From Elsinoe ampelina (taxonomy: Eukaryota): a DNA stretch of 64,000 bases. The stretch is from positions 1 through 64,000 of the forward strand of contig ML992505.1 of NCBI GenBank assembly GCA_010093995.1. Direction: 5' to 3'. Positions 47,246 through 59,153 of this stretch are shown here, piece after piece. The notes beneath the pieces were generated by a model that worked only from the letters and a program-made list of their open reading frames with translations, was not told the origin of the DNA and searched no databases. How positions within the stretch are numbered: position 1 is the first letter of the stretch; each line of letters begins with the position of its first letter. Made by a program: the position numbers and the translations under genes.

Positions 47246-49270
47246 ATGGGTAGCTACAACTTCAAGTGGTACGTCTCATGCATTCGCTAAAGATGTAGAG
47301 GAAGCGACTGACAAGATCATGGCAGGCCGCATGACGGCAGCGAGGTCTACGTGACTGGCACCTTCGACGACTGGTCCAAGTCGCAAAAGCTCGAAAAGAC
47401 TAGCAAGGGCTTCGAGAAGGATGTGACTCTCAAGAATGTCGACGAGAAGATCTACTACAAGGTGCCCACAAACCGCTGATCGGCTGCTACGCAGAGCAGC
47501 GTCGCTGACAGCAAGCAGTTTGTGGTAGACGGCAACTGGACTACAGATCAGACCGCGCCCTCAGAAACCGACCATGAAGGTAACGTGAACAACGTTCTCA
47601 CGCCGGAACATATTTTGTCCTCCGTAGCGCCTACTTCGACGTAAGGCTCTCCAGTATCCAGCACCCAAGCCCGCATGCTGACATGGTCCAGGACTGCCGC
47701 ACTCGCCGGATCAGTCCCACTCGAGAAGAACAGCAAAGGTGTCACGAGCGATCTTCCAGGTCAATTCCCAGAAACTCCAGCGAACGAGAACCAAACCTTT
47801 TCCGTCAACCCTATTCCCGCAACTTCCGGCGCAAGCAACCCCGTAAAACTGGCACCAGGCGACAAGGTGCCTGACTCGAGCTCCTACACCGCGGATACTC
47901 TCGGCAGCAACGTCAAGTTGGACAAAGAGTCGTATGAGAAGGGCGGCTCCGGTGCGGACGAGCAAACATTCTCTGTCAACCCCATTCCTGCCACGGCTGG
48001 CGCAGGCAACCCTGTCAAGCTGGCACCCGGAGAGAAGGTACCTGACGCGAGCACCTACACCGACAGTACCGTCACCAACAACGTCAAGCTCGATCAGGAG
48101 TCATACGAGAAGAGTGGCTCTGGCGCACCCGTCCTCCCTCCGGTCCTCAACAAGCAGGAGCAAGCAGAGGCCAACGGCGCCGCTATCTTTGGTGTCCCAC
48201 CGGTTTCGAGCAACATCATCCCAGAATCCAGCCTCCCAATGGGTCAAGCAGGCCAGACAGACAAGAGCTTGGGTGATCCCACCATATCCTCTGCCAGTCC
48301 TCAGAGCACCACTGCTCAGCTGGCCGGACAGCAACCGATCGAGCCGAGAGGCGTCCCAGAAGTTGTGAGTGAGAGTCAGCAAACCGCTCATGCATCACCT
48401 GAGGCTTCGTCTTCCCCAGAAGCCGTGCAAGAAAAAGCTCAGGTTGAGGAGGAGATCAAGAAGAAGGTTCCCGAAGCCCCATCGACCTCCGAATCTGGTC
48501 TCCTCGGGAAGAGCGAGAAGGGCATTCTTGGCACCGCCGCCGCTGGTGTGGCTGCTGCTGGCGCTGCTGCCGCGGGAGCTGCTTACGCTGCTCGCGACAA
48601 GGTGGCTGAGTCTACGGGAACGAAGCCTGAGGAAGTTCTTCCCACCTCCGTGCAGAAGACGCTCGATAGCGCAGCCGGAACATCGAAACCTGCAGAAACG
48701 AAGCCGGTCGCCACCACCGCGACTGACGCAACGCCCAATGGTGTACCAGAAGTCGTGACTGAGTCACAGCAGAAGGCGCACGCCGATCCGGAGGCTTCAG
48801 CTTCTGCAGAAGCCGTCAAGGAGAAAGCTGCTGTGGAGAAAGAGCTGGAGCAAAAGATCAAGCCCACACAAGAGACTGGTGAGCCTGCACCAACTGATAG
48901 CGCTGCACTCTCCGCCAGCGCTCCAGTCAAGCCGACCGACGATTCGACACCCGGCCCAGACTCCCGAAGCAACGCCGGACGCACTCTTGAGCCCAACCCG
49001 ACCGCCAGAGCCGACGAGTCGCGTGATGTCTCTCCCATGACCAAGCCTGGCGAACCCAGTGCTGCACCAAAGCAGACTGAGACCACCGTGACTGCCGGCA
49101 ACCCGTCCACGCCACAGAAGAAGCGTACTTCCAGCTTCTTCAAGAAGACGCCTGCCACACCGGATAGTACTCGAACACCCCAATCCGACACCGCCAGCCC
49201 GTCGAGCCAAGCCAAGAAGGATAAGAGGAAATCCTTCTTTGGCAAGCTCAAGGAGAAGCTCAAGTCATAG
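47246..49270 (+). CDS. Mdg1/Crp1-like protein with an N-terminal AMPK-beta-type glycogen-binding (CBM48-like) domain
   Basis: Spliced N-terminus MGSYNFKWPH..SEVYVTGTFDDWSK...YYKFVVDGNW...GNVNNVL. Introns 47269-47325, 47462-47518, 47641-47691. Repetitive acidic body, basic end KKDKRKSFFGKLKEKLKS. Confidence 0.85.
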
Positions 49271-50827: not shown

Positions 50828-51168
50828 TCTGTCACTTTCAGACACCGTGATAGCTCAGAAGGACATGATGGGAGAGAGGCGTTGAGAAGCGAAGAACAAA
50901 TCTACCTCGAGAGGGAAAGAGAAACCGGCACTGGCTGCAGCAGATACTAAGGTGGCTCATAGGAGATCAGAATCGGACATGTAGCACAATGAATGCAAGA
51001 CGTGAAAAGTCATCACTATCACTTTTGACACACTCATGCAGAGCATTGACTGTCATCGACATGTATTAACTCCCGCATTACCTTCTTCCCCTTGAAAAAG
51101 CCATGCTGGGTATCAGAAAGCCACCATCCCATCCTGCCCCTCGTATACAAACGACCACTCCCCCTCCA

Positions 51169-54100
51169 TCACCGATGCACCACCTCCGGGAACCTCTCCC
51201 ACTCCCCCGGTGGTCTCCCCAACCCATCTCTGTGATGCGCCGGCTCCCACGTCCCATACCTCGTCATCACCATCTGCGGCGCCCCATGCATCCCAAACGT
51301 CGGCTGGCCCATATTCCCCATCGTCCTTGCCTGAGCAGCGAAACTAGCCGGTGGCTGTGGCGGCACGGGCTGAGGCTGCTGCACCTGTACCGGAGTCTGC
51401 AGAGGAGCATGTTGAATCACCCCCGCCGTGCCCGCCGCCTCCTTCCTCCGCTTCTCCTCTTCCAATTTCTTCTTCTGAACTAATGTTCCCTTGACGCCAG
51501 TGAGATACTTCCTCGCCTCTCTCACCAATGGCCCTTGTTCAGGAGACTGCTTGAGTGCGTCCAGCATGGCCCGGACTTGAGTTTCGGAATTGATGTGTGG
51601 GCAAATGCGAGCGTGGCCAAAGTGTGCGAGGCCGCAGAGGTTGCATCGTTCTAGACCGGCTTTCTTGAGCGGGCAGGAGCCTTGGGCGTGCATGTTGCCG
51701 CAGGCCACGCAAGTGGTGACGATGGGGCCGTTGGTGGGCCGTTGTGAAGGGTTTGGGAAGAAGATGGGGACAGCTTCGGAGCCAGGGGGTGTGGGGAGAC
51801 CGTGGTAGCTGCGGTTGAAGGTTTGGGGGACGTTGACGCGGCGGAAGACGGCTGTGAGAAAGGTGTTAGCGGTGTCTCTTGGTTGGATTTGAAAGCAATT
51901 GGAAAAGCAATAACGGGAGCGAGAAGAAGTAGGAGTAAAGCTGTTGTACAGGAGTGGTTGAGCTGTTGGACATCCACCCCTAAGGGGATGGGCTGTCCGT
52001 GGTCAGATCAACCACTTCTCTCGGTGTCGTCGGCTTGCGGGGCCAGGCTTTCATGCCAGTATCCTTCATCTTTGAAGCAGGAACTGGCTCGAACGCATCA
52101 TCACTGCAATCTTCGACGTCCGCTGGAGACAGTGCAGGTGTCGGTAGCGAGCCCGCTGACTCGGTCTTGACAGCCCTGCCTTTCTTAGGCGTGACCGGAG
52201 CCCTTGACGCAGGAACCGGCCTGATGGTACGGACACTCGGGGCCTTTGAAGGCGTTGCCTTGAGGGGGACTGGCTTCCGCACAGACTTCTTGGGCGTGAA
52301 GCTTTTCGTGGGTTTGACACGCTTGGACGTAGTCGGACTCTTCCGATAGTTCTTCATAAGAGCTTCGAAAGCTGCCCTCTTCTCGGCAAATACGGTCTTG
52401 AAGAAAAGATTCTTCTTACCTTGGCCAATAGTCGGGGTCTTCTTCTTCTTCTTGTTCTTGCCGCCTTCGAGTTCGTTTGCGTCAACTGCATCCGATTCGG
52501 GCTCGGAGTCTTGTGCATCTCCTCCATCACTCTCAGCTCGGAAGTCTGTATCGCTGTTGTCATCTTTGACTTTGTCCAGAGTTTTCGCTTCTTCCGCCTC
52601 GATCGCGGCGTCCTGCAAGTCCTGGTCCGTAGGCTGGTAGCTCACGTTTTGCTGATTCAGTTAGCTTAGTATCGTATAAGGGAACACAATACACACCATC
52701 TTCGCACGGCGACCTCTGCCAAACGCCTCCTTGACAGCGGCCGCCTCTGCCGCGGCAGCTCTCTCCCGCTCCTTGAGAATCTTGTCCCAAACACCTGGAT
52801 CTGGGGCAGTATCCTCAGCCTCGGCGGTCAGACTTTCTTCGAGGCCGTTGTTGGCCCAAACGCGAGCGGCGGAGAATTGAGTCTCGGCAGATTTGTCTTC
52901 ACCAGTCTGAGTATTTTCAATCTGACTGCGATCAAGCAGCTTGTCGATCTCTGAATCCTCATACTTGATGTCTTTTTCACCATCGTCGCTGAAGATCTCC
53001 GAGGCGCCATAAGTAAGGATGGACTGCAGGTCCTGATCAGTGGCGTCTTCTTCGTCCATCTTCTCAATCAGAACATGATCAAGAGCCATCTTCTTGCGGC
53101 CAATCTGGATGATCTTCTCCTCGGCAGAGGCACGGGTGACAAGCTGAAAGCAAAGCACTTTGTTCTTCTGCCCGATACGATGCGCACGGCTCAAAGCTTG
53201 GATGTCCTGATGAGGATTGAAGTCCGGATCGAGGATAATGACCGTATCCGCGGTGGCCAGATTGATGCCAACACCTCCAGCACGGGTGGAAAGGAGGAAC
53301 GCAAAGTATTCGGACTCGGGGGCATTGAAGTCGTCGATGCGTCGCTGCTTCTGCAAGCTGCTCATGGTCCCATCGAGACGATGGTACATCATACCCAGAC
53401 CGTCGAGGAAGTCTTCCACCATGGTGAGCATGTCCAAGAACTGGGAGAAGATGAGGAGCCGGTGACCACGCTCTTTGAGCTTTGGTAGAAGCATCTCCAG
53501 AAGCTGTAGCTTCCCACTCGCTTCGACGAGATTGCGATGGCTGATCGAGTGAGAAACATTGCGCTCTTCGATGCTCTTATTGTAGACGAAAGGGTGGCAG
53601 AGACATTTCCGCAGCTGCATGAGGATATTGTTCAGTGATCCCTTCTCGCTAGATTTAAGATCCCGCTTTTCTTTGAAGAGGGCTCGCAGCAGGTCCGGAT
53701 TCTTCGCAAGGATAGACCGGTAAAGCTTCTTCTGTACCAGAGACATGGAGACCGGTACGATGATCTGCGCCATAGGTGGCAGGAATGTGAGGACTTGAGC
53801 CTTGGTCCGGCGAAGGAAGAACGGACGAATCATCTCGTGAAGCCTAGCAACCTTCTCGTTGTCCAAATTCTCATACTCGGATTCAAGTTGAGAAGCATCA
53901 TGCGCCTCATCGAGGAATTGGAGAAGATTGAAGAGCTCGCGCGCATTGTTCTGTAGCGGCGTACCAGTGAGCAGGATTCGGAAGGGCACCTTGAGGGAGA
54001 GCAGCGCATTGTAAAGGATCGTCTTGTCGCTCTTCAATCGCTGGCCCTCATCCACAATCAAAGCTTGCCATGGAACGTTGCGGAAGAATTTCTTGTTGTT

Positions 54101-56985
54101 GTCGTCGGCTGCGGCTTCGTAGGAGGTGACGACAATATGGGCCTTTAGCTCTTTCACTCCCTTCGGGAAGAGTTCATAGCGATGTGACATGTCGCGAGCC
54201 GCCTGTGAACCGAACCATGCAACGACCTTCAAGCCTGGGGCCCAATGCTTGATCTCGCGACGCCAATTGGCGCATGTCGCATTCGGGACAACAATCAGGA
54301 ACGGGAAGGTGTTGTGCTCAGCGACCAGAGTTGCAAGGAATGCGATGATCTGAATGGTCTTGCCTAGACCCATCTCGTCTGCTAGGATTGCGTTCTTCTG
54401 AGAGTACCATTTGTAGTACAGCCAGTTTAAGCCTTCCAGCTGATACTTCATCAACTCGCCACCAACGAGGATGTCGGGCTGCTTCTTCTTTTCGAGGTCA
54501 GAGGCAAAGTCCTTGGAGCGTACCTTCTCGAGTCGAGTCTTCAGTGGCTGAGACTTTGGTAGATGAATGTATTGACCCATCACGTAGTCGTTGTATGCGG
54601 TGACAAAGTCAGTCCAGCGGTCCTCATCTTCAGGAAGTGGAGGCGATTCCCAGACGGCATCCTCGTAGGTCAGACCCTTGAACTTGATAAGTGCTTGTTT
54701 GACTTCCCGGATTCGAGCTTTGTCAATCTCTTCGCCCTTGACGTCCACGATACTGGTGTACTTGACGTCGAGAACAATGTCAGTCCGGAGGTATTCTTCA
54801 GGAATGGCATCCTCGGTGGTCATTTTGGGCACTCTTGCTTCGTCACGCTTGGCGAAAGCCTTGCGCATGGAGCCTGCTGAGACGCCCCAAACCCATGGCC
54901 CGGGCATCCATGTAGCCTTGAAGTAGGACATGCCCTCCCAGCGAACAAGGTAGACTTTGTCATCCTCGTTGATTTCTTCGATCGTCTTGGTAGGGTCGTA
55001 ATTGTCTTCCTCAACGGGCTTCCAGGCGATTAGACCTTTGAGCTTGGCCGGGGCAGTCTCGCACTCCTGGCATTTCCATTCCTTGGAGTATTCGAGAAAT
55101 CTCTGGGTGGCGACCGACTCTTCATCCGTGTCCATGAGTTCAGAGTTGCGAGGTGGTAAGTGCTCAAAGTGCCAGGCTCTGTAGCAGCCGACACAGCGAA
55201 ACATGACCGTAGCAGGATTGTTGACCAAGGATGACGGGATCGGGGCGCTTGGATCCTCGCCACCGTTGAGTTCTCGATCTTTCTGCTCTTGCGCGGTAGT
55301 CTTGCGAGCTCTGAAAGCTTTGCATGCCGGTCCAGGGATCTGGCAGTCAGTACACTTGGCTTGATCAGGAGCTGTTGGCTCCCGCTTCAAGACAACCCGG
55401 ATGCATCTCCTGCACTGCAGAACAAAATCTTCGGGTCCTACTTTGGTCGCCATGTGCTCTCGTGTCGAACGATCTCTGATGCAACCCTTGTGATACGAAA
55501 GTGTGCACCCTTGACAGTAAATCAGAGGTGCGAAGTTGCTGCCTTGACCACAAGTATCGCATTGCTGCATATGACGATTGCGAAAGGGATGGGTCCGCGG
55601 CAGAGGTTGGAACTTCTCCTTGGCTCCGACCGCCTTGGGAGCTGCTGCAGGCCTGTCTGAGTCCGAACGATGGATTTGGTCCTCTCCGATTTCTATCATA
55701 CCGCCCTGATGACGGGTAGATCGACCAGATTGACGAACAGATTTATCCTTTGGCGCACGATCGAACACAGTACCATCATCTGCAACATAGCTGGAACGTT
55801 TACGGCTTCCTGTAGCTCTGCTTGGGCGTTTAGGCTTGATGTCGGAAGTGAGAAATGCGACCTCATCTTCGCTTGACTCCGAGTATGGCGGCGCTTCGTC
55901 TTCGGATGGGATAGCGTTCCTCAGTGATCGGCGGCTTCTTGTGCCGTGCTTGTCGCTATTGTCCAGTGCAGAGGCGCTGCGACGGGTGTTGCGGCGCGAA
56001 GATCTGAGTCGAGTCAAGTCATCGTCACCTTCATCTCGACGCTTTGCTAGCAGGCGCAGGCGGGGCTTCTTTGTGGCTCGCGAATCGTCACTGCTATCGA
56101 GTGCAGCGTTCATGGCATCAAGGTCGGCATAGCCATGTCCTAATTGTCGCTTGGCAGAGGGGCGACTTGTGCTCATCTCAAAGTCGCTTTCGTCTGCGAA
56201 ATCGTCGTCGTGGTCGATATCCTTGAAACTTGATGTGTAGGCACTGTATGCTTCTTTCCCACCTTCGAGTCGCAGCACTTGAGAAAGAGGCAGCTGCAAA
56301 TAATGTTAGACTCTGAATTCGGTAGGAGTTGACAAATCAAGGTAAAGCTGGAAGCAAGTGCGCAAATAAGAAGTGAGTAGCAAGTTGAGGTCGATGACTG
56401 TTCAAAAGGAACGACCAGTGATTAGAGCAGAAAAAGGCAGCAGTGAGAAGCTCGAGGCCCAGAGGCTTCCATGTGCCCAGAGGTAGTGATTGAGATATGA
56501 ATAGAAAGACTCACCTCAGAAGAATGTGTATCCTCAAATAGGACCTCGCAAGTGTTTTCCGAACCCTTACTCTTCTTCACTTCCAACACCTCTTTGACCA
56601 CTCCAGCAAGGTGTGTGTAATCCTCAAAGTCACTCAGATTTCCGTCTTTGTAAGGTGGGATATACACCAGAACTCGATCGTCGACGATTTCTTGCTGCTT
56701 GTTGATCGGTACGAACGAACTGATCTGAATTGGTTCTTCTGACACTCCTGCACTGGAGGCTTCGTCGCTGACATCGTTTGATGAGGTGGGTGAGATCGAG
56801 ATTGGCCTTGGTCTGTTCTGAGTGGCATTGCGGAGTCCTTGACTGCTCGCCCGACTGCTCGTGAGGTCAACAGGACTGTCCTCATCCGAGCCATCATCCA
56901 CTGGACGTGATGTTTCCACGGGCGTCTTGTCCTTGCGTGGAGCGGCCCATTGCGAAATGTCCTCGGATTCGGAGGAGGACGCCAT
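51169..56985 (-). CDS. CHD3/Mi-2-like chromatin remodeller (Mit1-like): PHD-like fingers, tandem chromodomains, SNF2 ATPase, C-terminal Cys/His finger
   Basis: [85 protein letters not shown]. Introns 56514-56294, 52696-52652, 52419-51852. Confidence 0.88.
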
Positions 56986-57314
56986 TGTTTGCGGGTGTGC
57001 TTGCGCCGAAGACTTGGGATGTGTGGTCAGGTGCAAGCGCAGTGATACATATCGTCTAGAGAAACTATGGATGCCAGCTTCCAGTGACCAGCAAGAAGAG
57101 GAAGAGCCAAGATTTGTCGAGGTGTGACTGTGAACTTCACATGGACGAGCCTCGGAGTGTCGAAGTGTAAAGCTACACGTCGGCGTTCGAGACGCGAAAT
57201 GCCGACATTGATTGATTGATTGACCCACTTTTATTTGCTCCGACAGCTCCAAGCTACGATTCCATATCTTACCTCTTCTCCATATCACTTACACGAGTGC
57301 CTTCGTTTAATCTC

Positions 57315-59153
57315 ATGCAATTATGCTCGAGCTCCTACGGAAGAGTGATGCTCAAGCATTGCTGCCATTTCAGGTCGAGCTTGGCAAGAGTTCCACTGGT
57401 ACCAAATCTTCGTCTTGCCTCTTCTGCGAGTGCCATCAAAAAGGGTATACGAGCTGAGAAGCCATCTCGCCGTACAAGGGACACAAGGCCAGGTCACAAG
57501 TTCGATGGCTTTGCAGAACCACGTGATGCCTTCGGACTAAAACCGGGCTCTGCTGGTCGCACCACGCACCGAGCCACGTTGGACGCCACCAAAATTGGAC
57601 CACCGAGTGACAGGTTTGGCAGACGGACCGACTTCGGACGAAGCCATGTGGGAAATCGGAAAGCCACATCTGGTCCAGCGGCCACTTGGATCGAGGCCAC
57701 GAGGGGTTCAAAGGTTGCGTCGTATGACAGAGAACGACCTCGTGCCACGCCCGTGAAACCGGAACGACTTGATAGGCTCACAGGGCGGGCAGACTCGCTT
57801 TCCAATCGCTTGCAGCGAAAGACCTCTGATCGAGGAGTGGTGGATGATAGGTCTGGCAGTCGCCATGACCATCGCAAAGACCGGCAGCCAACGGGTCGAA
57901 AACCATTAACATCACAAGAACTGGGCGATCGAGCCATGTCGCCGAGTTTCAGGAGCTCAAGAGAGCAGCCGGCAAGTCTGAAGTCTTCACCTTTGCGAGA
58001 ATGGCAGGATCGTCCTGCTCGGTATTCAAGCTTCGAACACGACGCAAAGGAGCATCCGGCATGGATCCGAGAAGCGCCCGAATCGACATTGCCACTCGCC
58101 ACCGCGGCATCACAATTTGTCTATGGCCGCTCGGCGGCGCTCGCTTGCCTTCGCGCAGCTCGACGACAGATCCACAAAGCATATGTTCAGAAGGATCGCC
58201 TGGAAGCCTCAGGTTATGCTCAGATCATCCTGCAGCTTTGCAAATCACTCAAAATCAGCGTCGTTCGAATGACCACTCCGAGCCAGATACAATCTATGAA
58301 AGCGACTGCTGATGATCGCCCATACAATGGCATCATCTTGGATGTAGCACCTTTACCTTATCCACCTGTAGAGTCGCTTGGCAGACCGACCATAGCAGGT
58401 TCCCTCGGCTGGACATCAACGTCCACGACAGCTGCGGGTAGTGTCGTGGTCCACCTCAGTCTGGGTCCGCAGTCTTCAGAAGAGACGCAGGCAAATGCAT
58501 CCCTGAAGCAGATAGTATGCCCCGCTTCGAGGCAGCCCTTCATCCTACTCTTAGACGGCATCAAAGATGAAGGCAATCTTGGCAATATCCTCCGTACGGC
58601 TCATTTCTATGGTGTGGATGCCGTAGCTGTCTGCTCGGACGCCACCGCGCCCGTCAATAGCTCCATCGTTGGGAAGGCCGCATCTGGGGCTACAGAAGCG
58701 GTGCCATTGCTCAAGGTTTCCGATCCTGTGCGCTTCTTAGAGCGCAGCAAGGAGAATGGGTGGCAAGTATGGGCCAGTGTTTCCCCTGACTATGAACAGG
58801 AGGCTCCGGATAAGAAACGCGGCTCCAGAAATTCAGTGGTATCGTCTGAAGGGTTGGGAAACCCTTTGACCTCACAACCCTGCATTCTTATGCTTGGGAG
58901 CGAAGACGCTGGTTTGAGAAGTTTTGTTGTCAAGAAAGCTGACAAGCTTGTCACCATTAAAGGTAGAGCCGATCGGGTTGATGTTGGGGTCGACAGTCTG
59001 AATGTGGGGACGGCTGCAGCAGTTTTGATTGATGCTTTCATGAGAAGATCAGTGAGGGACAGCAGCACGGCTGCAGCTGACTCTGCAATTGTCAATGCTC
59101 GTCCAAAGGAGTTCAAGGTCCGCAAGTTTGTCAAGGACGACGGGCTTGATTAG
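57315..59153 (+). CDS. MRM1: Mitochondrial rRNA 2'-O-methyltransferase (SpoU/TrmH family)
   Basis: Arg-rich presequence-like N-terminus; LP..TAASQFVYG, LLDGI.D.GNLGNILRTA.F.GVD, LGSE..GL, VDSLNV..AAAVL. Start at 57315 or 57348. Confidence 0.88.
   Translation: MQLCSSSYGRVMLKHCCHFRSSLARVPLVPNLRLASSASAIKKGIRAEKPSRRTRDTRPGHKFDGFAEPRDAFGLKPGSAGRTTHRATLDATKIGPPSDRFGRRTDFGRSHVGNRKATSGPAATWIEATRGSKVASYDRERPRATPVKPERLDRLTGRADSLSNRLQRKTSDRGVVDDRSGSRHDHRKDRQPTGRKPLTSQELGDRAMSPSFRSSREQPASLKSSPLREWQDRPARYSSFEHDAKEHPAWIREAPESTLPLATAASQFVYGRSAALACLRAARRQIHKAYVQKDRLEASGYAQIILQLCKSLKISVVRMTTPSQIQSMKATADDRPYNGIILDVAPLPYPPVESLGRPTIAGSLGWTSTSTTAAGSVVVHLSLGPQSSEETQANASLKQIVCPASRQPFILLLDGIKDEGNLGNILRTAHFYGVDAVAVCSDATAPVNSSIVGKAASGATEAVPLLKVSDPVRFLERSKENGWQVWASVSPDYEQEAPDKKRGSRNSVVSSEGLGNPLTSQPCILMLGSEDAGLRSFVVKKADKLVTIKGRADRVDVGVDSLNVGTAAAVLIDAFMRRSVRDSSTAAADSAIVNARPKEFKVRKFVKDDGLD

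Follow-up and report, generated by a model that had tools for sequence, protein, structure and literature searches.

The minus strand of a 64,000-nucleotide stretch of Elsinoe ampelina DNA (GenBank assembly GCA_010093995.1, contig ML992505.1, positions 1 to 64,000; hereafter the window) carries a gene for a chromatin remodeller of the Mit1/CHD3 type, whose third intron contains a candidate second end for the protein. The main mRNA, from which this 568-nt intron is removed, would give a protein ending in the Mit1 C-terminal zinc finger. If the intron is kept, translation would continue for 146 codons and stop just after a VVDLT motif, giving a product with all catalytic and reader domains and no finger, which would end in a disordered, basic tail rich in Lys and Pro, with a C-terminal motif of the type that interacts with SUMO (small ubiquitin-like modifier). 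We put at roughly 0.6 the probability that unspliced mRNA is translated into this finger-less, tail-ended remodeller, a reading drawn from sequence comparison. The observation itself is real and conserved, and its interpretation as a splice switch is partly supported.

The encoded protein is a Mit1-type (CHD3-like) remodeller by its domains and its C-terminal finger. Compared with Pfam, the 1214-aa large exon matches zf-PHD-like (PF15446, 1.8e-65), Chromo_MIT1 (PF23615, 6.6e-33), SNF2-rel_dom (PF00176, 4.9e-67) and Helicase_C (PF00271, 9.2e-24), while exon 4 matches zf-CCCH_6, the "Mit1 C-terminal Zn finger 2" (PF18585, E 3.7e-26), and also the solved S. pombe Mit1 chain (PDB 5ikf_A, E 6.7e-7). 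The spliced form that an earlier note on this DNA had deduced from the letters is identical to the existing public E. ampelina model KAF2223941.1 (P0122). All four exon translations are exact substrings of that model, and its 1660 residues are the sum of 157, 1199, 77 and 226 exon residues and one Ala codon across the intron-3 junction. The public model of E. batatas (P0001) has the same spliced shape. According to the accessible text of PMC6499331, the C-terminal domain of S. pombe Mit1 binds Clr1, the scaffold of the SHREC remodeller-deacetylase complex, and by analogy we infer a SHREC-like assembly through Clr1 for the finger-bearing protein.

Intron 3 is a spliceosomal GT-AG intron with a donor, a branch site, an acceptor and removal in RNA. 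The last bases of the upstream exon, CAAG, end at 52420 and GTAAGA opens the intron at 52419; a GCTAAC branch site occupies 51870-51865, and 51852 is the last base of the CAG acceptor. Both sides of the intron are in phase 1, so that G and CC join into an Ala codon followed by VFRRVNVPQ... and the Cys/His finger. We compared RNA-derived contigs of 4 out of 7 listed runs with the gene. Junction 52420/51851 is present in contigs of three of the four (X1, X3 and X6, from three studies), and a control intron of 45 nt (52652-52696) is skipped in three (X1, X2 and X3). Because the contigs skip two introns, the runs are RNA-derived, and the joints therefore demonstrate that the 568-nt intron is truly removed. 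Moreover, an X1 contig is colinear with the window over 51016-51851, so there is no further intron downstream. The finger form is the main assembled form, and the phase-compatible joining of the ATPase to the finger exon postulated in the earlier note is confirmed both by the RNA joint and by identity with P0122. The same note had put the intron at ten times the local norm, which holds against intron 2 (45 nt, verified in RNA) and fails against intron 1 (221 nt in the public model).

One X1 contig crosses the donor without a gap, showing that some unspliced RNA exists. Its word depth is 7.5, compared to 64.8 and 118.6 for the X1 contigs with the spliced joint, although contig depths are unable to rank isoforms and assembled contigs drop rare variants. 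Contigs give no cover at 51872-51952, and those of X2 none over intron 3.

The first 440 nt of the intron remain open in the frame of the upstream exon (codons 52420-51983, TAG at 51982-51980), a count that held when checked on the minus strand, and the 5′ splice site itself doubles as the tail codons Gly-Lys-Lys. As described before, the tail is rich in Lys and Pro (14% each), contains TPKK twice and TPSK once, and ends in EVVDLTTDSPSP; [ST]PxK sites are of the cyclin-dependent kinase type. Among 20,000 mononucleotide shuffles, a fraction of 0.0026-0.003 stays open for that length (P about 0.003), and the remaining five frames of the stretch contain 2-10 stops each. On a codon log-ratio score trained on the exons of this gene, the tail reaches +0.18 in frame versus −0.52 and −0.03 off frame. 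This value lies within the in-frame range of the large exon, whose windows extend from 0.06 up to a mean of 0.37, and is higher than every off-frame window of that exon (maximum −0.13). The last 128 nt of the intron have no positive codon score in the tail frame and look like an ordinary intron.

No Pfam family matches the tail above its cut-off; the only hit, YL1, scores 14.9 bits versus 29.2 required. The tail had been called histone-H1-like, which is correct for its basic composition and does not extend to membership of the family, since Pfam detects no winged-helix globular domain; the likeness is compositional only. Word-index protein searches, with the tail alone among longer proteins or with the acidic exon and the tail among proteins of near length, returned nothing at E <= 0.01. 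The sole tail match among 1.84 billion representatives, P0121, is a tandem-repeat protein with 11 low-complexity stretches and was judged spurious. The tails of relatives were reached through a full-length protein search and a cluster listing.

Within the Elsinoaceae, the tail aligns in frame with E. fawcettii (P0002), S. murrayae (P0004) and E. australis (P0003/P0126). Identities of 38-44% exceed those of all 60 composition-matched shuffles per species (means 25-28%) and are comparable to the 32-67% seen in other disordered parts of the same protein. Conserved islands are GKK.LFFK, LPTPA.S, PASKMKE and (V/I)IDLT. The gene of E. australis is split in the same way, with its stop following the motif, and has a core that is 81% identical; the raw genomic open reading frames (ORFs) of this species end in DDVIDLTMDSP-stop, where the window ends in EVVDLTTDSPSP-stop. 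The tails of the two E. australis-type genomic ORFs, P0003 and P0126, differ from each other by one in-frame codon (GKKLLF versus GKKKLLF) at the site where the donor serves as codons, and by several substitutions besides.

Metagenome contigs were scanned with an alignment of the finger, yielding 30 loci, of which 5 are incomplete and 25 complete. Three layouts can be distinguished. In layout (a), found at 17 of the 25 complete loci, the acidic region, linker and finger share one open frame; the count takes in L011, where the frame stays open as far as the locus extends. Eight of the 17 carry a (V/I/F)(V/I)DL(T/S) motif shortly before the finger, and in Pezizomycotina Mit1 a motif of the SUMO-interacting type seems to be ancient, and constitutive where the linker is uninterrupted. 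In L004, L009, L012, L013, L017, L023, L024, L025 and P0119, the motif lies 15-25 residues before the VKPFER...finger segment. Layout (b), that of the window, is present at 5 of the 25 loci (L002; L005 and the identical L006; L016 and L020); L016 and L020 differ by one residue, so that layout (b) comprises three distinct sequences. Here the acidic exon is followed by a phase-1 G/GTAAG, an in-frame Lys/Pro tail, FIDLT, FVDLT or VIDLT with an acidic run, and a stop. In L005 and L016, a branch-like CTAAC or CTAAT and an acceptor before (T/L)FRRV follow within about 30-40 nt of the stop. In layout (c), GGTAAG is found at this position in L014 and L022 too, with a short, tail-less intron after it; the locus L019 is split as well. 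The GGTAAG of L014 and L022 is in frame and comes after the acidic region; the part of the locus concerned lies at about 1480-1800 in L014 and about 1783-2260 in L022. The position of the intron may predate the tail, or these two loci may have lost the tail.

The tails of layout (b) bear the marks of selection in their reading frame. The public A. pullulans model P0024 ends in exactly the L016 tail. Between L005 and L016, we counted 43.8 synonymous differences per 82.7 sites and 58.2 nonsynonymous differences per 259.3, that is, a ratio of nonsynonymous to synonymous differences per site (pN/pS) of 0.42 (Jukes-Cantor omega 0.29; Fisher p about 4e-7). Shifting the same alignment by one or two bases raises the ratio to 0.93 and 1.23. 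On three DNA-level alignments that were not protein-guided, it is 0.42-0.43 in frame versus 0.92-0.96 and 1.27-1.34 in the shifted frames. The gaps between the two tails measure 12, 3, 3 and 6 nt, all multiples of three. Since the in-frame ratio is below that of the shifted frames and all gaps preserve the frame, the tail is probably translated in the L005 and L016 lineages. Comparison of both with L002 gives 0.61-0.66 in frame and 0.97-1.22 shifted. For comparison, omega is 0.13 in the acidic exon and 0.06 in the helicase. Moreover, the tails are conserved right up to the stop (EE(V/S)I in Aureobasidium, PLHA in Hortaea), which argues that translation ends there. As judged from these comparisons, conservation shows that the intron's open frame has been kept as coding sequence continuous with the frame of the upstream exon, and that the layout is common to Elsinoe, an Aureobasidium-like lineage and a third Dothideomycete lineage represented by L002. 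The open frame and motif thus recur in orthologous introns, both in the Elsinoaceae alignments and in L002, L005 and L016, a point that the earlier note had put up for checking.

The motif at the end of the tail is VVDLT in the window and VIDLT, FIDLT or FVDLT in relatives. Its assignment as a SUMO-interacting motif (SIM), made in the earlier note, agrees with the accessible text of PMC4907222, in which VIDLT is the SIM of PIAS1 and (I/V)DLT a SIM core. Of 87 sequences that bear a tail, 23 match a strict core pattern (1.9 expected from shuffles) and 18 match the core with an acidic flank (0.9 expected), always within the last quarter of the tail or linker. The 23 of 87 are a lower bound, as the strict pattern misses AIDLT, TIDLT, IVLDD, ILLDE, VVLDD and IVLSDDDD, which were seen by eye. 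The acidic or phosphorylatable flank typical of such motifs is TDSPSP in the window and DSDED, DDGDDD or EADEEE in relatives.

We paired every GT or GC in the tail with every AG that keeps the finger frame open. Downstream of 52094, the tail in the window has no GT donor that is compatible in frame. The final pair of compatible donors, 52104 (GTGATG) and 52094 (GTTCGA), would delete PASKMKD and VVDLT, and past VVDLT the sole frame-compatible site is a poor GC (GCCCAT, 51993). With no compatible canonical donor after the motif, VVDLT and the finger should therefore never occur on one protein here; this donor scan shows the two predicted C-termini to be mutually exclusive in this genome under canonical splicing, as proposed earlier. 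A constitutive tail with a donor near 52000, the arrangement that the earlier note had named as fatal to its proposal, is ruled out by the RNA joints and the donor scan.

Public gene models treat this region inconsistently. We classed by eye 47 NCBI-named models, picked among 120 matches listed: 19 end in the tail and have no finger, 14 have a long linker or tail together with the finger, 8 run from the acidic region directly to the finger exon, and 6 are irregular (five pass from the tail into the helix that follows the finger, and the remaining one begins mid-finger). Aureobasidium has all three shapes and Hortaea several. The two E. australis models are in mutual conflict, and each translates non-conserved sequence across the remainder of the intron; consequently, the E. 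fawcettii and S. murrayae models that join tail and finger are no evidence for a distal donor. Read-through of the intron, or a jump from the tail to the post-finger helix with loss of the cysteines, was noted in P0123 and P0124 (E. australis), P0050, P0058, P0077, P0105 and P0107. The coding-like intron has probably misled annotation in these models. The Dothideomycete models of this gene fall into three mutually incompatible shapes (with the finger only, with the tail only or with both), sometimes with invented sequence and even within a genus (Elsinoe, Aureobasidium, Hortaea, Zasmidium). The coding-like intron explains this conflict, and Mit1 domain censuses in these fungi are hence unreliable.

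Several points weigh against translation of the tail as an alternative protein end. The colinear contig across the donor comes from one of the four runs, has a low depth and ends at 52019, before the stop codon; it could be pre-mRNA. The comparison of junction with retention that the earlier note had proposed stands on its spliced side, in three of four runs, and has this single contig on the other. That the unspliced RNA would be mature, exported and translated is what we infer. About 960 nt would follow the tail stop in a retained mRNA and might expose it to decay, unless its poly(A) tail is added within the intron. The flank of VVDLT in the window, TDSPSP, is less acidic than those of relatives, and SUMO binding by the tail is predicted from the motif. 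The pN/pS evidence comes from relatives, and selection in the lineage of E. ampelina itself rests on protein alignments and the intact frame. Furthermore, the models of E. fawcettii, S. murrayae, A. melanogenum and some other species join tail and finger via a distal donor; if they are right, the tail is selected within a finger-bearing protein and the arrangement in E. ampelina could be a recent loss.

Three other explanations for the open frame have to be weighed. The tail could be a relic exon, formerly a constitutive linker between ATPase and finger of the kind that other fungal classes have; in this lineage the upstream donor would have taken over, leaving the tail as mere intron that is still open only since the change is recent. 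The single frame of acidic region, linker and finger at 17 of the 25 complete loci, eight with the motif, fits such an origin, as do the several public Dothideomycete models with tail and finger and the predominance of spliced contigs in the RNA examined. However, the split layout with a stop after the motif also exists in E. australis, the Aureobasidium-like lineage and L002, which makes it old rather than recent, the tails of the latter two are under in-frame purifying selection and conserved up to the stop, and a neutral frame of 146 codons would stay open with P of about 0.003; we consider a relic unlikely. Less probable again is translation of the tail only together with the finger, via a minor distal donor, which would make it an optional insert rather than an alternative end. 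This is what the models of E. fawcettii (VIDLTES/TVFRRV), S. murrayae (VIDLTGD/AVFRRV) and A. melanogenum (P0027) depict, and contigs would drop such a rare variant, but in the window the compatible GT donors end at 52094, those at 52104 and 52094 remove PASKMKD and the motif, and the poor GC at 51993 is all that follows. The conflicting E. australis models show predictors being forced at this place, and the conservation reaches the stop. We give the least credence to unproductive retention that would tune Mit1 dosage through nuclear detention or decay, with a tail protein devoid of a role. Intron retention is the commonest type of alternative splicing in fungi and the long stretch after the stop would favour decay, yet frame-specific purifying selection, indels restricted to multiples of three and a conserved end motif and stop position would then be left unexplained.

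If, as we favour, the unspliced mRNA is translated into the tail-ended remodeller, the balance between a form docked on the scaffold and a form free of it, tethered by SUMO or DNA, would depend on the choice of splicing. As a tentative extension that we hold to be less likely, at least three Dothideomycete lineages (Myriangiales, Aureobasidium-like and the L002 type) might use this switch between a Clr1/SHREC-docked Mit1 and one free of scaffold and deacetylase, which a C-terminal SIM on an H1-like basic tail would tether to SUMOylated chromatin proteins; this second form would be encoded within an intron preserved as coding sequence for a long evolutionary span. Should the tail form be made, a plant pathogen and many of its relatives could uncouple remodelling from the deacetylase scaffold by one splice decision, and remodelling could be re-targeted through SUMO, offering a testable handle on how SHREC/NuRD-type modules split and are recruited.

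Table 1. Features of the Mit1-type gene and its third intron, in positions of the window.
Feature	Positions	Strand	Details
Mit1/CHD3-type remodeller gene	51169..56985	minus	ATG at 56985, stop 51169-51171; spliced form 1660 aa
Exon 1	56515-56985	minus	exact substring of P0122
Intron 1, 221 nt	56294..56514	minus	GTGAGT ... CTAAC ... CAG; gap between exact P0122 matches; without RNA contig cover
Exon 2	52697-56293	minus	exact substring of P0122
Intron 2, 45 nt	52652..52696	minus	joint 52651/52697 in contigs of X1, X2, X3
Exon 3	52420..52651	minus	acidic stretch (SDTDF...) to KKKKKTPTIGQ and first base of the Gly/Ala codon
Intron 3, 568 nt	51852..52419	minus	phase 1, GT..AG; joint 51851/52420 in X1, X3, X6
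5′ splice site AAG/GTAAGA	52414..52422	minus	doubles as tail codons Gly-Lys-Lys; G/GTAAG kept in L002, L005, L016
Tail ORF, 146 codons and TAG (51980-51982)	51980..52420	minus	GKKNLFF ... LPTPALSP ... PASKMKD ... EVVDLTTDSPSP
Three [ST]PxK sites	52181..52297	minus	TPKK 52286-52297, TPSK 52244-52255, TPKK 52181-52192
VVDLT, SUMO-interaction-type core	52001..52015	minus	followed by TDSPSP and stop
Non-coding intron remainder	51852..51979	minus	C/T-rich, GC content 0.47, G 0.13; GCTAAC 51865-51870, CAG 51852-51854
Unspliced colinear contig across the donor	52019..52449	minus	X1 record 2, 431 nt
Exon 4	51169..51851	minus	VFRRV..., Mit1 C-terminal Zn finger 2, low-complexity end, stop
Pfam PF18585 match within exon 4	about 51493-51651	minus	

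A second open frame on the minus strand (51651-52007, 118 aa, rich in Pro, Ser, Thr and Ala) overlaps the start of exon 4 out of the finger frame and could be entered only via phase-0 donors, GTGGTT at 52015 or GTTGAT at 52012. We found no evidence of its use and treated it as chance. On the plus strand, two further open frames were noted in the window. The one at 47645-49270 (541 aa, rich in Ser, Ala and Pro) contains a near-duplicate unit, FSVNPIPAT.GA.NPVKLAP.(D/E)KVPD.S.YT, and repeated PEVV(S/T)ESQQ.AHA.PEASxS.EAV.EKA blocks; its predicted product looks like a repeat-bearing secreted or stress-type protein. The other, at 57216-59153 (645 aa), is divergent and adjoins the Mit1 start, and its C-terminal half, recognised by eye, reads like a SpoU/TrmH-type RNA 2′-O-methyltransferase (LLLDGIKDEGNLGNILRTAHFYGVDAV).

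Each component has precedents: intron retention that alters the end of a protein, CHD3-class remodellers with SIMs, and the Mit1 finger. Apparently new is the combination, an intron kept coding across Dothideomycete lineages that would trade a docking finger for a SIM-ended basic tail. We found no published description of this coding-intron arrangement in the open-access literature searched on Elsinoe and Mit1 splicing, in keeping with the earlier note, which knew of none; the spliced form is nonetheless a public model, and tail-ended models of relatives stand unremarked in annotation. With exitrons and translated retained introns, intron 3 shares exon-like composition, coding potential and a protein altered by retention. 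An exitron is internal to a coding exon, and the frame is usually preserved on either side of it. In contrast, the length of intron 3 is not a multiple of three (568 = 3×189+1), retention would end the protein at a stop 128 nt ahead of the acceptor, and classification as an exitron was rejected.

S. pombe Mit1 has the same PHD-like finger, Mit1 chromodomain, SNF2 ATPase and C-terminal Zn finger 2, and the finger form described here is an ordinary orthologue. Unlike here, where the Lys/Pro tail and motif are intronic, a finger-less end goes unmentioned in the accessible text of PMC6499331. The SIM of PIAS1 resembles the tail end in its core, VIDLT in relatives and VVDLT in the window, and in the Ser or acidic residues that follow; PIAS1 is otherwise an unrelated protein with this short linear motif alone in common. 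Human CHD3 binds SUMOylated KAP1/TRIM28 via SIMs, as far as the accessible part of a review reports (PMC5577459); it too belongs to the CHD3 class and is brought to silent chromatin by a SIM, which in our case is putative. In CHD3, however, the SIM is on the same protein that sits in NuRD, whereas here the motif and the docking finger would be alternatives. The functional split proposed here has a parallel in Drosophila Mi-2, which the accessible text of PMC7272611 places in dNuRD and, separately, in dMec, a SUMO-dependent co-repressor that is independent of histone deacetylase. The fly achieves this division by choice of partner (MEP-1) and not by protein ends made through splicing; if our proposal is true, the intron of E. 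ampelina and its relatives would be a fungal, isoform-encoded counterpart of the dNuRD/dMec division.

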